From: a phage
Reading direction: 5' to 3' (one strand)
DNA: 64,000 nucleotides
NCBI GenBank assembly: GCA_025823825.1
Contig: GCA_025823825.1_4720.1
A model generated the notes under the pieces. That model made no database searches. It saw nothing but the letters and a program-made list of their open reading frames with translations, and was not told where the DNA came from. Of the stretch, positions 2,789 to 57,117 are shown piece by piece (within the stretch, counting starts at the first letter, position 1; each line of letters begins with the position of its first letter). The position numbers were made by a program, and so were the translations under genes.

Positions 2789-3262
2789 ATGCCAGTTTCA
2801 TCCAAACCAAGAAAAAAATCAGTAGGAAAACCGAAAGCTCAGGAAACAACAGCAATTCGTTGGGACGAGTTACGTGAACCTATCGAAAACTGCGAATTGT
2901 TATTGGGCACCCTGGGTGCGGCTATTTACCAAGCGACGCAGCCCTGTCGTTTACGATTAACCCAAAACAAACGTGATGAGTTCGTTGCGTTATCAACAAG
3001 CACGAATAAAGATCTGACCGAACTTCAAACCGAGTTGACGACGATCAAGAACTCCATTACGCCGATGTACGGTAAAGAAGTCGATGAACAAAGTATTCTG
3101 TTACAGTACAACTACGGGATGTCGTTAATGAACATCCTGGAACGCGCATCCGATATTCTGCGTCCTGACGTTGCACGCCTGAGCCAACTGCGTGTTGAAG
3201 GGATGGAGAACCAGATCCGATTCGCTAACAGTGTTAAATCTCAAGGAGCCACCGAAGCATGA
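2789..3262 (+). CDS. hypothetical protein (157 aa), basic N-terminus
   Basis: ATG preceded by AGGAGT; stop TGA overlaps the ATG of the next gene (ATGA). Confidence 0.6.
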   Translation: MPVSSKPRKKSVGKPKAQETTAIRWDELREPIENCELLLGTLGAAIYQATQPCRLRLTQNKRDEFVALSTSTNKDLTELQTELTTIKNSITPMYGKEVDEQSILLQYNYGMSLMNILERASDILRPDVARLSQLRVEGMENQIRFANSVKSQGATEA

Positions 3263-4944
3263 GCGAACAAGAAAAAGAAGTCGTGACGAATCAGGAAGCC
3301 ACCGAACGTTCAGAGTCGTCCGTTGAAACTACGATTCCGGCAAGTTCCGAGCCGGTTGGTTCCGCACAGCAGGAAAGTAAAGACGAAGTCAGCACGACTA
3401 AAGAAGATGTAGTGGCTCCAGAAGCAACCCGTGAAGAAGAACCATCACATCCACCGCTAATCGATTTCTCGAAGGCGACGATACGTTTCCAATGCGAAGA
3501 CATTCGTCCTAAGAGCCCGAAGAAAACAAAACGCCAGCCGTTGGTGTTACCGTTATATTCTCCGCGTGTACAGACAACGTATTACCGGGAATACATCAAC
3601 GAAGCAATGGATACCGTACAAGCCATTGTCGCTCAACGCGGTAAACCGACAGACGAACAGTTTGATAAATTCAGTAAAGCGGTGGTGCAATCGGTTGCTG
3701 ATGGACAATATCATCCGCGTGGTCCAGCTCACGATCGTGCGTTGGAACGTAAGGGCAGTCAGTGGACTAACGTGCCCGTAGACTCATCGGGTGTTGGTCG
3801 CGTTATTCCTGGCATCCCGCAACCGAACCATATTCCTGATGATGTCGAAGCGCCGCTGACAGGAACCGATGCGATCTATTTTGCCATCCGTAATACGAAA
3901 TCAGGTGCGCCTGCGGTAATGCCGTTATGGCATAGCGGTATTAAGCTGCAGTTTAATCCGCCGTCAAATGAACGTGTTGCAATTATGCACGAACGTATTG
4001 CTCGCGATAAAATCCTGGGTGGACGTGATAGTACCGGCTTCCTGTTTTCGGCAACCTCGATTATCACCATGAAGCACGCAATCGAATTAGCATTAGAATG
4101 CTGCTACATGGCCAACGTACCTAACCTGGATATACAGCGTTTGAAAGACATTATTCCGGTTACCGATGTTCCAGCGTTATTGTTGAACGTGTTGGTAACC
4201 ATGTATCCGTACGGATATCCTTACGTACAGACCTGCTATCAGAATCCAGAAACCTGCGACTATCGTGTCGAAGATACCGTAAGCTTTGCGAAACTCTATC
4301 AAGTTGACAACAGCGCAATAACCAAACGTATGCGACAGATCATGACCGAAGGTCCGGTCATGACAGATGAACTTTTGCGTGAGTATGCAAACGAACTGGG
4401 TGAAACAAACTCCCGTACGCTGGATCTGTCCGACAACGGTTCTGTTATCATTGAGCTTGAAGTACCGAAGATCTCACGACAAATCGCCATGGGCGAACGC
4501 TGGTTAAGCGATACCCTGGAAGATCTGCGTGATATTCTATCGCGTCCGTCAATGACCGAAGAAGAGCGTGATCGTGTTATTCGTGAACGTCAGTTCTATA
4601 GCTGGATGCGTCAGTATGATGCGTGGATCAAATCGATGCACGTGTCAGTAAACGGTACCATGCGTCGTGTAAGCGATGCGGATACAGCAACGGTATTAGC
4701 GCAGCTGTCTCGTGATAGCGATCTTCGTGAACGCTATATCGATGGGTTGATGCAATTCATCGGTGATTCGACGATTGCGCTTGCAGCAATGCCTGCCTGG
4801 AAATGTCCGAAATGTAATGCCGATATTGCTGACAATCTGCGTGACCAGAAATACTACGATCTGATTGCTTTGGATGTACCCCAGCTTTTTTTTACCCTAA
4901 ACTCCGTCCAATCTCTTCAGGAGGGGATGGACGCGGTATTCTAA
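3259..4944 (+). CDS. hypothetical protein (561 aa) with acidic, Ser/Thr/Glu-rich N-terminal ~70 aa
   Basis: ATG 3259 preceded by AAGGAG and coupled to upstream stop; T8 run near the 3' end, see findings. Confidence 0.7.
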   Translation: MSEQEKEVVTNQEATERSESSVETTIPASSEPVGSAQQESKDEVSTTKEDVVAPEATREEEPSHPPLIDFSKATIRFQCEDIRPKSPKKTKRQPLVLPLYSPRVQTTYYREYINEAMDTVQAIVAQRGKPTDEQFDKFSKAVVQSVADGQYHPRGPAHDRALERKGSQWTNVPVDSSGVGRVIPGIPQPNHIPDDVEAPLTGTDAIYFAIRNTKSGAPAVMPLWHSGIKLQFNPPSNERVAIMHERIARDKILGGRDSTGFLFSATSIITMKHAIELALECCYMANVPNLDIQRLKDIIPVTDVPALLLNVLVTMYPYGYPYVQTCYQNPETCDYRVEDTVSFAKLYQVDNSAITKRMRQIMTEGPVMTDELLREYANELGETNSRTLDLSDNGSVIIELEVPKISRQIAMGERWLSDTLEDLRDILSRPSMTEEERDRVIRERQFYSWMRQYDAWIKSMHVSVNGTMRRVSDADTATVLAQLSRDSDLRERYIDGLMQFIGDSTIALAAMPAWKCPKCNADIADNLRDQKYYDLIALDVPQLFFTLNSVQSLQEGMDAVF

Positions 4945-5366
4945 TCGATCCGCGATACGGGTTACATGACGGACAACTTGTTCGTAATGATGAAAAAATC
5001 TGGGAATTGCTGTTAGCGCGTAAAGGCGATGGTGGCATGAAACTGAACATCGAAATGGGTATTGCGTACGATACCATGTTTGGCTTGTACGATCGTGTTA
5101 ACGACTGGACGCCGTTGAAATGGGTTGCTCAGCACCCCGCTGAAGATCCCTGGGACAGATTAGGGATTAAGCCCTTAATCGAGGATTATGTTCGATTCGG
5201 TATTAAAGAGTTCATGACGTTGGATGCGTTTTTACAAGCACCGTATCCTTACGCGCAAACGGTACTCAAAATCGCACAAGACGAACTGCGGAAACGTAGT
5301 GCGGTACTGGACGACGATGAGGACAAGTTACGACGAGAAGAAGAACGTTTACGAAACGGAAAATAA
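4845..5366 (+). CDS. downstream frame reachable by -1 frameshift from 3259..4944 (or an independent ~110-aa ORF from ATG 5037)
   Basis: Frame is stop-free from 4845; ORF track starts it at a TTG (5007); first ATG is 5037. Confidence 0.35.
   Translation, partial: PEILRSDCFGCTPAFFYPKLRPISSGGDGRGILIDPRYGLHDGQLVRNDEKIWELLLARKGDGGMKLNIEMGIAYDTMFGLYDRVNDWTPLKWVAQHPAEDPWDRLGIKPLIEDYVRFGIKEFMTLDAFLQAPYPYAQTVLKIAQDELRKRSAVLDDDEDKLRREEERLRNGK
4886..4893 (+). other. T8 homopolymer / candidate -1 slippery site (T_TTT_TTT in the zero frame)
   Basis: Eight T at 4886-4893 inside the overlap between the 3259..4944 frame and the -1 frame open from 4845 to 5366. Confidence 0.5.
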
Positions 5367-5367
5367 A

Positions 5368-5877
5368 ATGGCGAGATTTACCAGTTTGATTGGGTTGGAT
5401 ATTTGGGAAACACCGGCTGACGTTCGGGTTATTCCTGTCAACACCGTCGGTGTGATGGGACGCGGTCTTGCCAAACAGGCAGCCGATCGCGTCCCCGGTC
5501 TTCTTGAAGCGTACCGTAAGCAATGTCAAGATGGGTTTAAGGTGGGCGAAGTCGTATCGTATCAACACGGCGATAACGATCAACTCACCTACGTGTTGTT
5601 TCCATCAAAATCGGATTGGCGTGAAAGAACACGACGCGAGTATATCGTTAACGGATTACTGGCGTTAAAAGCGTGGTTATTGGAGCTTCAGTTCGAAAGA
5701 GACGGCTTCTCATACCAGCGTCCGGCTGAACCGCTGATTGTCGCAATTCCTCCGGTTGGTTCTGGTTGCGGTAATATCGGTTATGGACAATCTGAAACAA
5801 TCCAGCCTCAATGGGTACGCGCACAAATCAAACAGTATCTTGCCACCGTACCGAACGTTCATTTCTACTTGTTCTAA
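5368..5877 (+). CDS. macro-like domain protein (putative ADP-ribose binding/processing)
   Basis: Real start ATG 5368 (MARFTSLIGLDIW...); motifs VIPVNTVGVMGRGLA and IVAIPPVGSGCGNIGY resemble macro-domain Gly-rich loops. Confidence 0.5.
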   Translation: MARFTSLIGLDIWETPADVRVIPVNTVGVMGRGLAKQAADRVPGLLEAYRKQCQDGFKVGEVVSYQHGDNDQLTYVLFPSKSDWRERTRREYIVNGLLALKAWLLELQFERDGFSYQRPAEPLIVAIPPVGSGCGNIGYGQSETIQPQWVRAQIKQYLATVPNVHFYLF

Positions 5878-17862: not shown

Positions 17863-18088
17863 AAGCACTCCAATCATGGGGGCGAACGCCCCCCATCAGT
17901 TAAATGATCGTTTACGTCGCGTAAGGGTAATATAATTGCTGTGAGCCATATCAGAAGTTCACAACATTCTGAATCATAAGGTTACGTCGTTGGAAACAAA
18001 CCGATACAGATTCTTCATAGAACATTGAGATGATGGAAACCTAATTCGTACCATGAAAGCCGCAATAAAAAAAAGAAAAATAGGAAAA

Positions 18089-55647: not shown

Positions 55648-57102
55648 ATGAAACTCAAACAAAGCTGGAAAGACGAACTTCTCGCGTTAGTAAACAACAA
55701 AAACAGTTTACAGCTGACATTAGACGACGTAAAATTTGAACTAACTGAACCGGTAAGCGAAGTGCCCGGAACAGTCGTCGTTACGATCAAACCGAACGAT
55801 GATAGCCGTTACTTTAACGAGCAGTCTCTGACCTACATCCGTCGAGACATCGCTAAAAACTTCACCGGGATCCCGTTACGTGTTATCGTTAAAAATGATA
55901 CCGTCGTAAGGGATATCATCAATACGATTGCTGAACGTTACGGATTGGTATTTGACACAACCGTTGACTTCCTCGAATCAGAGCTGAATAAGCAGATTAC
56001 GTTCGAAGACACCGGTATTAAAGACATTACGGTTCCGGTTGCAAACACGTCTTATGTTTGGGCTGGTAATCTTCAGTTCAATATCGCTAACGATACGTTA
56101 AGCTTGATTACGATCATCAAGGAAACCAATCTTACGAATCTGGTTTATCTGGATGGCGTTGAAGCTGACACAACCGGATCGTTATTATTAGCAACGGCCT
56201 CGATTATCGACGATAACGGAAATACCGAAACAACTGAAGGTGTCCTTGATGCCGAGTACTTCCAGAATGTCCTGAATGTCATGGTTCGTTATGGTGATAT
56301 TACCAGCGAACAAATGCAACAAGCAATGCAGACAATTAACCAAAACGAAGACGTTCGTGAAGTGGAGGTTAAGTCATACGGCGACTCTGAGCTGTTGGTA
56401 ACCACAAAGAAAGATTGGGCTATCGGTAACCTTAAGGGCGCTATGGCAGTTGTTCGCAACGCTCAACCGAAACCAATTCAGTACATTCTCAAAACGAATG
56501 GCGGCTCCGTTACACTAGCATTGGACGGTTGGACAAATATTTCCATCGATTGGGGTGATGGGAATAAAGCAACATTACCAGGCGGACAAACTCGCGGATT
56601 CCACGAATACAGTGACGGTACAGAACGTACGATTGTAGCTACTGGTGTCCTCTCAAACCCTGAAGCACCAACACAGACACAAACCATCAGCGGCGATAAC
56701 ATCACTGAAATCGTTGACTGGAACAACGGATTACCGCAGGCTGTACAATTAACGGGATTAACCAGTTTGATTAAGGTTCCCGATTATATCCCGTCATACT
56801 GGACAACGTTGGAAAGTTTGTTCGAGAGCTGCTCATCGATAAACGACGTAAACATCACGAAATGGAATACCGGTAACGTCACATCAATGAAGAATTTGTT
56901 CTTTGGCTGTAACGTCTTCAACCAACCGATCATCGTATGGGATGTTACCCATGTAACAAATATCGACAATATGTTCTCGGGATGTTCGGCGTTCAACCAG
57001 GATCTAAGGATGTGGTCATTCCCAGCGGATACTTCCCGCAACAACTACGATAACGGTGCTACAGCCTGGCGGTCAGAGTATCGTCCAAGCTTCGATTTGT
57101 AA
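55648..57102 (+). CDS. tail fibre-like protein with shared N-terminal module and C-terminal BspA-like repeats (remote, opposite-strand paralogue)
   Basis: N-terminus MKLKQSWKDELLALVNNKNSLQLTLDDVKF... paralogous to 16108..17862; C-terminal ...VFNQPIIVWDVTHVTNIDNMFSGCSAFNQDL. Confidence 0.65.
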   Translation: MKLKQSWKDELLALVNNKNSLQLTLDDVKFELTEPVSEVPGTVVVTIKPNDDSRYFNEQSLTYIRRDIAKNFTGIPLRVIVKNDTVVRDIINTIAERYGLVFDTTVDFLESELNKQITFEDTGIKDITVPVANTSYVWAGNLQFNIANDTLSLITIIKETNLTNLVYLDGVEADTTGSLLLATASIIDDNGNTETTEGVLDAEYFQNVLNVMVRYGDITSEQMQQAMQTINQNEDVREVEVKSYGDSELLVTTKKDWAIGNLKGAMAVVRNAQPKPIQYILKTNGGSVTLALDGWTNISIDWGDGNKATLPGGQTRGFHEYSDGTERTIVATGVLSNPEAPTQTQTISGDNITEIVDWNNGLPQAVQLTGLTSLIKVPDYIPSYWTTLESLFESCSSINDVNITKWNTGNVTSMKNLFFGCNVFNQPIIVWDVTHVTNIDNMFSGCSAFNQDLRMWSFPADTSRNNYDNGATAWRSEYRPSFDL

Positions 57103-57117
57103 AAAAAAAAAAAAAAA
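57101..57117 (+). repeat. A17 homopolymer starting within the stop codon of 55648..57102
   Basis: Seventeen consecutive A; reads as T17 on the minus strand directly after the stem-loop. Confidence 0.8.

Follow-up and report, generated by a model that had tools for sequence, protein, structure and literature searches.

Does translation of the gene for the 561-amino acid (aa) protein gp081 of Escherichia phage vB_EcoM_Goslar always end at its stop codon, or does a part of it continue into the reading frame that has been recorded as the separate gene gp082? We addressed this question in a stretch of phage DNA of 64,000 nucleotides (nt; contig GCA_025823825.1_4720.1 of the GenBank assembly GCA_025823825.1), which is termed the window hereafter and shares 97.5% DNA identity with vB_EcoM_Goslar at positions 3259-5366. 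The source of the window is assigned to a Goslar-like, nucleus-forming jumbo phage of E. coli belonging to Chimalliviridae. A preliminary description had noticed that the two frames overlap across a run of eight T (T8) and had left two options, a programmed -1 frameshift or a homopolymer miscall separating the parts of a single gene. The comparisons presented below support the first option and exclude the second, as T8 was invariant across assemblies. Altogether, recoding of some kind at this site is very likely, and we propose that the T8 run is probably a site of programmed -1 ribosomal frameshifting, from which both a 561-aa protein and a 702-aa trans-frame protein would be made.

Two reading frames meeting at a run of eight T

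The first open reading frame (ORF1; positions 3259-4944, plus strand) encodes a 561-aa protein that corresponds to Goslar gp081 and belongs to the family of phiKZ gp77 (phrog_4585). All of the coordinates in the preliminary description hold: ORF1 terminates at TAA 4942-4944, the -1 frame is open from 4845 to 5366, and the T8 run lies at 4886-4893 on the plus strand. The zero-frame codons over the run are CTT (4885-4887), TTT (4888-4890), and TTT (4891-4893), and the heptamer T_TTT_TTT at 4887-4893 places the first TTT in the P site and the second TTT in the A site. A -1 slip would lead from ...LDVPQLFF to YPKLRPISSGGDG..., append 157 residues, and give a 702-aa product. The extension runs on the plus strand from 4893, which would be read twice, to 5366 (157 codons and TAA 5364-5366), matches phrog_12109, and contains the gene annotated as gp082 in Goslar (5037-5366, plus strand; 109 aa from ATG 5037). 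Two parts of the extension deserve separate attention. Positions 4893-4944 (plus strand) would be dual-coding, with the zero-frame tail TLNSVQSLQEGMDAVF followed by the stop codon and YPKLRPISSGGDGRGIL in the -1 frame. Positions 4944-5006 (plus strand) lie past the ORF1 stop but before the first ATG, GTG, or TTG of the -1 frame, and encode the family motif D-P-R-Y-G-L. The predicted trans-frame peptide is YYDLIALDVPQLFFYPK, while the zero-frame C-terminal peptide is YYDLIALDVPQLFFTLNSVQSLQEGMDAVF.

If the true sequence were T9, the two frames would be joined into a single gene of about 700 aa, and homopolymers are indeed error-prone on certain sequencing platforms. Nevertheless, exactly eight T were found in the window, in Goslar, in ten further independent metagenome or genome assemblies, and in IMG/VR contigs, and these assemblies stem from different projects and assemblers. 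The same T8 was found in the more diverged contigs L046, L047, and L048, of which gp081 is 85-87% identical, and in three contigs (L019, L020, and L049) of which the proteins are just 45-56% identical. Unrelated chimallivirus genomes carry T7 or T8 in the same register and with the same two-frame layout. The zero-frame tail beyond the run is conserved as well (TLNS[VI]Q.L.E...), its stop codon is located exactly 16 codons past Phe-Phe in all of the T8 lineages, and distant family members, Noxifer for instance (...EFFMLASRKLNRILS followed by the stop codon), have C-termini that align with it. The presence of T8 in every independent assembly leads us to reject an assembly error, which we regard as having next to no probability. 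Moreover, the conservation of the zero-frame tail and its stop implies that the 561-aa protein, the predicted product of the unshifted reading, is real.

Base composition makes a T8 run somewhere in 64 kb unremarkable: 12 matches of the T8-type pattern were found at three loci, against 8.2 expected from shuffled sequences. Within coding sequence, the run at 4886-4893 is the sole run of at least seven T on the sense strand among the 61 ORFs of the window, and 4887-4893 is the sole in-frame T_TTT_TTN heptamer in 16,945 codons. The window uses TTC for Phe more often than TTT (384 vs 272), and the Phe-Phe dicodons in the 61 ORFs are 13 TTC-TTT, seven TTC-TTC, two TTT-TTT, and no TTT-TTC, such that TTC comes first in 20 of the 22. 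U-rich slippery runs are avoided in the coding sequence of this phage except at 4886-4893. We found neither a terminator nor a promoter at the T-run, and a hairpin upstream of it was not significant (z = -1.09).

Evidence for the use of the -1 frame comes from the stretch that precedes any start codon. The first ATG, GTG, or TTG in the -1 ORF is TTG 5007. Among 12 genomes of the Goslar group, the variable sites in 4944-5006 split into synonymous and non-synonymous changes at a ratio of 11:5 when read in the -1 frame, as opposed to 2:13 in the zero frame and 1:14 in the +1 frame. In the closest set of genomes, all of the six variable sites upstream of 5007 fall at codon position 3 of the -1 frame. 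The same 12 genomes show no variable site at 4885-4913 and six in the 51-nt overlap, compared with 70 in the 285 nt upstream, and the conservation at the nucleotide level starts exactly at the run. The sequence TTTTTTTTACCCTAAACTCC[R]TCCA is identical at the nucleotide level in the lineages of 45-56% protein identity; in L019, L020, and L049, T8 and ACCCTAAACTCC are kept at that level, the opening of the -1 ORF precedes the run by just 11 nt, and P-x-[FY]-G-L, the family motif, is encoded upstream of any start. Conserved protein motifs upstream of any start are present in the window, L020, phiKZ, and others, and homologues align from residue 17-27 or so of the -1 frame, well upstream of M49 (the start of gp082). 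The annotated and potential starts are themselves poorly kept, as ATG 5037 is replaced by a Thr codon in L020 and L049, and TTG 5007 by CTG in L048. Judging from these substitution patterns, purifying selection acts on the -1 frame upstream of both ATG 5037 and TTG 5007, and we regard this coding signature as showing that the frame is translated without a start codon of its own. Thus, gp082 (109 aa) most likely represents only the C-terminal two-thirds of the domain encoded in the -1 frame, although ATG 5037 could additionally yield a free 109-aa form.

Conservation of the arrangement in Chimalliviridae

A homologue belonging to the gp77 family is present in 159 phage records. We compared 26 lineages, namely the Goslar group (three lineages), phiKZ, 201phi2-1, PhiPA3, Phabio, PA1C, Noxifer, RVTF4, LucasX, RP12, RSL2, DT01, the Erwinia phages pEa54, pEa6, and Desertfox, CR5, the Serratia/Klebsiella phages KpGz_1, KpSz_1, FBKp24, and Moabite, the Salmonella phage SPLA10, the Vibrio phages pir03 and Yong MS32, and AgentSmith. 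Homologues devoid of the overlap or the T-run had been named in advance as the observation that would speak against a frameshift; none was seen, and both features are kept across the virus family. Each of the 26 lineages has the gp082-family domain in the frame that is -1 with respect to the gp77-family ORF, and this frame stays open as far back as the conserved Phe-Phe codons. Counted from the site, the open frame has a median length of 163 codons for -1, compared with 15.5 and 12 codons for the zero and +1 frames, respectively. The distance between the site and a conserved Tyr takes 11 different values (53-72 residues) with the frame always preserved, implying that many indels occurred and that every one of them was frame-preserving. 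The distance from the slip site to the stop is 151-172 residues in 25 of the 26 lineages. These patterns suggest that the arrangement is ancestral to, and conserved across, Chimalliviridae.

The first canonical start codon in the -1 ORF, on the other hand, appears anywhere from residue 8 to residue 87 and at non-homologous positions. It often lies within the conserved domain, as in phiKZ (residue 85), AgentSmith (87), Desertfox (68), pEa54 (58), and Phabio (56). In phiKZ, for instance, a -1 ORF of 171 codons begins four codons before ACT TTT TTT, and PHIKZ076.4 as annotated (80 aa) covers just its tail. We considered whether the homologues are stand-alone genes with their own starts and rejected this possibility, as the annotated starts are non-homologous; the appearance of stand-alone genes is an artefact of gene callers, which take the first ATG, GTG, or TTG in an open frame. 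Under a conserved frameshift arrangement, small downstream ORFs such as Goslar gp082 and PHIKZ076.4 would be fragments of a trans-frame C-terminal domain.

These observations bear directly on the idea that no recoding takes place and that the downstream domain is produced solely by independent initiation, at ATG 5037, TTG 5007, or, for example, ATT 4938, with the T-run being nothing but Leu-Phe-Phe codons. All database records inspected do give two separate genes, AGGAGG (in AGGAGGGG, 4919-4926) is found 13 nt upstream of ATT 4938, several distant homologues start 4-6 residues before the R-[FY]-G-L motif, and the starts of RP12, 201phi2-1, and LucasX are at or just past the ORF1 stop. However, the selection upstream of 5007 and the loss of TTG 5007 or ATG 5037 in the contigs described above are at odds with this idea, and the first start is found 87-219 nt past the stop, in or after conserved motifs, in phiKZ, AgentSmith, Phabio, pEa54, KpGz_1, and CR5. 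Independent initiation also leaves unexplained the -1 relation in all of the 26 lineages, the ORF being open up to Phe-Phe, and the codon usage at the site itself (TTT as the first Phe codon in every lineage and a T preceding it in 21; see below). We therefore consider it improbable that independent initiation accounts for the domain without any recoding. The non-AUG start at ATT 4938 behind AGGAGGGG, an idea derived from length comparisons with the PHROG and Noxifer proteins, was rejected separately, because L019, L020, and L048 have CAT, GCT, and GTT there, respectively, and none of the neighbouring positions holds a conserved near-cognate codon either.

An exhaustive HMMER search with the 157-aa extension retrieved only small proteins of 92-158 aa and no fusion, and 47 more gp082-family matches found in a profile search are all 172 aa or shorter, again with no in-frame fusion. 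The matches to gp081 are 536-561 aa long. The failure to see an in-frame fused homologue in these searches fits a need for both isoforms.

Two of the lineages are worth describing individually. In the Pseudomonas phage RVTF4 (L016, positions around 3070-3140), the -1 ORF past the A_TTT_TTT site ends after 58 codons, and the rest of the gp082-family domain is in another frame (in a tblastn comparison with PA1C, residues 1-41 are in one frame and residues 46-162 in another). This break would be due to a second indel, a sequencing error, or a decaying gene. vB_BspM_AgentSmith (L036; 200 kb), annotated as a Bacillus phage, shares the gp77-family gene and the -1 domain with the phages of Gram-negative hosts and has T_TTT_TTA at the site. 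Unless the host named in the record is in doubt, the range of chimallivirus-like phages would extend to Firmicutes.

Proposed slippage by the ribosome or by RNA polymerase

The slippery sequence varies among the lineages in a restricted way. The heptamer is TTTTTTT in 14 lineages, TTTTTTC in five, and TTTTTTG and TTTTTTA in one each, so that 21 of the 26 lineages have the full T_TTT_TTN. The remaining five are N_TTT_TTY, comprising GTTTTTT (two lineages), ATTTTTT, GTTTTTC, and ATTTTTC (one lineage each). The first Phe codon is TTT without exception, as tandem re-pairing requires, while the genome-wide habit in the window is the opposite (TTC first). In 21 of the 26 lineages, the codon preceding Phe-Phe has T as its third base, whether it encodes L, V, I, T, G, or Y, and this indicates selection on a synonymous site. 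The run never reaches beyond the A-site codon on the 3' side and grows only in the 5' direction, into the X position of the heptamer. The -1 motifs that work most efficiently in E. coli include heptamers of the type H_HH.U_UU.Y, and U_UU.[U,C] belongs to the three tetramers most prone to shifting (PMC4066793).

The same 702-aa protein would be obtained if the polymerase, most likely one of the multisubunit enzymes of the phage, stuttered on the A8 template and added one U in a fraction of the transcripts, resulting in mRNAs with U9. Such transcriptional slippage is the main alternative, albeit an unlikely one. One inserted U gives exactly the frame required, T8 of the Goslar group is at the lower edge of the run lengths known to cause slippage, and a strong ribosomal stimulator was not found (see below). 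Moreover, E. coli genes avoid UUUUUUU in each of the three frames, and this avoidance has been attributed partly to transcriptional slippage (PMC4066793). Nevertheless, the run is often too short elsewhere in the family. Stuttering of a polymerase typically takes a run of nine or more and is weak at 7-8. We counted T8 in six lineages, T7 in twelve, T6 in six (including PhiPA3, Phabio, RVTF4, pir03, and Yong MS32), and T5 in two (Noxifer and PA1C). These short runs argue against slippage by RNA polymerase as the general mechanism, albeit a contribution in the phage studied here is possible. The extension of the run solely into the X position also matches the rule for heptamers. Thus, the heptamer rules and the many lineages with only T5-T7 lead us to favour a ribosomal shift over transcriptional slippage.

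A stimulatory hairpin or pseudoknot 5-9 nt downstream of the run had been suggested as something to look for, and here the outcome was mixed. The predicted RNA structure on the 3' side of the slip site (4894-4962, plus strand) is a possible stimulator and comprises two hairpins (4903-4909 paired with 4925-4931 and 4932-4936 paired with 4950-4954) and a closing helix (4894-4897 paired with 4959-4962). In the Goslar group, the predicted hairpin begins 9 nt downstream, and the 70 nt past the site fold better than shuffled sequences (z = -2.5 to -2.9); the consensus, in contrast, carries essentially no covariation. No Rfam family matches the region 3' of the site. As no convincing or conserved stimulator was recognized, the efficiency of the shift may be low.

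We propose the following mechanism. Host ribosomes translating ORF1 (gp081) would arrive at U_UUU_UUU (4887-4893), where a fraction of them would slip back by one base with both tRNA-Phe re-pairing on UUU. The slipped ribosomes would then read the -1 frame through a poorly conserved linker of about 30 residues and the helical domain of the gp082 family up to the stop at 5364-5366, yielding the 702-aa trans-frame protein, while the others would stop at 4942-4944 and release the 561-aa protein.

Several points weigh against this proposal. From the comparison of sequences, we infer both that the ribosome rather than RNA polymerase slips and what the isoforms would be for, and T8 could also support slippage by RNA polymerase with the same protein as the outcome. 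The first T of the heptamer is missing in five lineages, which keep the U_UUY tetramer in register. Phe-Phe is conserved as protein, and the register of the run is therefore fixed whatever the mechanism is. The lineages are phylogenetically related, so that the counts among them are not independent trials. As for stimulators, the consensus fold of six diverged sequences of the Goslar group is weak (-8.4 kcal/mol, with the covariation being as poor as described above), the mean z over the 26 lineages is just -0.83, and no Shine-Dalgarno-like motif was seen by eye upstream of the site. Finally, start codons are located at or next to the ORF1 stop in RP12 (ATG), 201phi2-1 (TTG), and LucasX (GTG), and independent initiation may coexist with, or replace, the shift in these three phages.

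We lean slightly towards a broader view, in which the recoding site is an obligatory and ancestral feature of all nucleus-forming jumbo phages and the form of about 700 aa has been missed in every annotated genome, those of phiKZ, 201phi2-1, PhiPA3, and Goslar among them. The ratio between the short and long forms would be tuned by the length of the run (T5-T8), possibly together with phage factors acting on host ribosomes or with phage RNA polymerases, and would be important for infection.

Gene product, neighbouring features, and known systems

The phrog_4585 profile matches ORF1 with an E-value of 1.4e-67 (residues 9-553 of the protein against positions 11-539 of the 551 in the profile), and the gp081 family is the phiKZ gp77 family (phrog_4585/8054). 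No functional assignment was obtained for ORF1 or the extension in sequence searches against Pfam, PHROG, and PDB, and no sequence relative of ORF1 was found among solved structures, including the virion models of jumbo phages. The AlphaFold model of ORF1, made from an alignment of six sequences, was unusable (predicted local distance difference test score, pLDDT, 35.7). That of the extension was mediocre (pLDDT 66.7), with residues 1-33 disordered and helices following them, and is consistent with residues 1-33 being a linker. We infer that the extension would serve as a domain or partner to be tethered to a fraction of the gp081 molecules. The two frames are fused in no lineage, which suggests that both forms are needed.

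Some homologues of ORF1 are labelled in GenBank as 'putative baseplate hub assembly protein' (T4 gp26-like) or 'baseplate protein', namely those of DT01 (L034, 958-2562), AgentSmith (L036, 901-2604), and AH06 (MZ501268). The T4 gp26-like label is not supported. Nine family members had no match to a Pfam baseplate family even at E-values up to 1, PHROG 4585 and 8054 are both annotated as 'unknown function', and no sequence relative was found in PDB.

The synteny around gp081/gp77 is kept, with the genes for the virion RNA polymerase beta subunit and the homologues of gp79 (head-protein-like) and gp78 located upstream. Downstream of the -1 ORF lies a macro-domain gene (5368-5877). Its ATG at 5368 is one base past the TAA of the -1 ORF (TAAAATG; 5364-5370), which indicates tight packing and makes translational coupling possible. 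In the Goslar record, the macro-domain gene is given a longer, overlapping version that starts 49 nt upstream of the stop of the -1 ORF. At the other end of the gene, the acidic, low-complexity N-terminus of gp081 (3259-3560 in the window) varies in length among near-identical Goslar-like genomes (L005-L014). The gp081 products of Goslar-like genomes are 554, 561, or 567 aa long, and the window differs from Goslar by 21 nt in the length of this part. One of the Goslar-related contigs mentioned above, L046 (GCA_007261085.1, AAHLWB010000010.1; 180 kb, 87% identity in gp081), comes from an assembly labelled as Salmonella enterica serovar Panama. This hints at Salmonella as a further host of the Goslar group or, alternatively, at a culture of the isolate that carried the phage.

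Two other homopolymer runs in the window are apart from the locus discussed here. An A17 run at 57101-57117 (T17 on the minus strand) begins within the stop codon of the ORF at 55648-57102, with a G+C-rich inverted repeat (CCTCCC...GGGGAGGA) after it. The region, between convergent genes, resembles an intrinsic terminator that would act in both directions. The other run, A8 at 18067-18074, lies between genes as well.

None of the GenBank and RefSeq records inspected annotates a joined coding sequence or ribosomal slippage at this site. The frameshift was unreported in the searchable literature, with subscription literature not covered, and no paper naming PHIKZ077 or PHIKZ076.4 was found there. 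Members of Chimalliviridae such as phiKZ, 201phi2-1, PhiPA3, and Goslar are model phages for the phage nucleus, the evasion of host defence, and phage therapy. If our proposal is true, the gene model of a conserved gene would be corrected in 159 phage records and spurious small 'hypothetical proteins' would be removed. It would also add a case of conserved recoding outside the paradigms of tail chaperones, insertion sequence (IS) elements, and dnaX, with a poly-U heptamer lacking an obvious stimulator. Synonymous recoding of three codons would provide a genetic handle on a conserved protein that is uncharacterised, and the proposal could be tested directly in existing proteomics or ribosome-profiling data of phiKZ or Goslar.

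Among the known systems, the tail assembly chaperones of phages (lambda G/GT and P2 E/E+E') resemble the present case in the conserved -1 shift that produces a short isoform and a C-terminally extended one. Their isoforms are made at a fixed ratio, the site is kept by position rather than by sequence, and the frames are never fused in frame. The slippery sequence of P2 E/E+E' is T_TTT_TTG. The chaperone genes, however, are located between the genes for the tail tube and the tape measure and encode proteins of about 100-140 aa, whereas the gene studied here is beside the genes for the RNA polymerase beta subunit and head proteins and its ORF1 encodes 561 aa. Neither sequence nor profile similarity to the tail chaperone families was found. 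The neighbours, the size of ORF1, and the absence of profile similarity speak against a chaperone pair of the G/GT type. In gene 10A/10B of T7, likewise, a minority of the molecules acquire a C-terminal extension through a -1 shift that takes place shortly before the ORF ends. In 10B, about 50 residues are added to the capsid protein, as opposed to a conserved domain of about 160 residues on a protein without relatives of solved structure here.

The tau/gamma proteins from dnaX of E. coli are another product of a -1 ribosomal shift on a homopolymer-like heptamer, made by the ribosomes of the same host. In dnaX, the shifted ribosome terminates almost immediately and gives the shorter product, and a strong Shine-Dalgarno-like element and hairpin stimulate the shift to an efficiency of about 50%. 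Transcriptional slippage is represented by mxiE of Shigella (T9) and dnaX of Thermus (A9). In these genes, a run of T or A is located at the overlap of two frames, as it is at the T8 site, and an extra nucleotide in their mRNA fuses the frames. The runs in these genes are at least nine nucleotides long, in contrast to T8 in the window and T5-T7 in most of its relatives.

The OrfA/OrfAB system of the IS3 family (IS911, IS3, and IS150) shares with the present case a second ORF in the -1 frame, a short overlap bearing an X_XXY_YYZ heptamer, a trans-frame fusion made in addition to a short upstream protein, and the lack of a strong start for the second ORF. The heptamers used by IS elements include U_UU.U_UU.C (PMC4066793). 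Differences are that the IS product is a transposase, while a phage core gene is concerned here, and that A_AAA_AAG prevails in IS elements as opposed to U_UUU_UUY in the phages. Stimulators are also defined in IS3 and IS911, namely a Shine-Dalgarno-like element upstream and a stem-loop or pseudoknot on the 3' side, whereas none is established at 4886-4893. Altogether, the mechanism is classical and not new, and the instance is notable for its conservation across a whole family of heavily studied phages.

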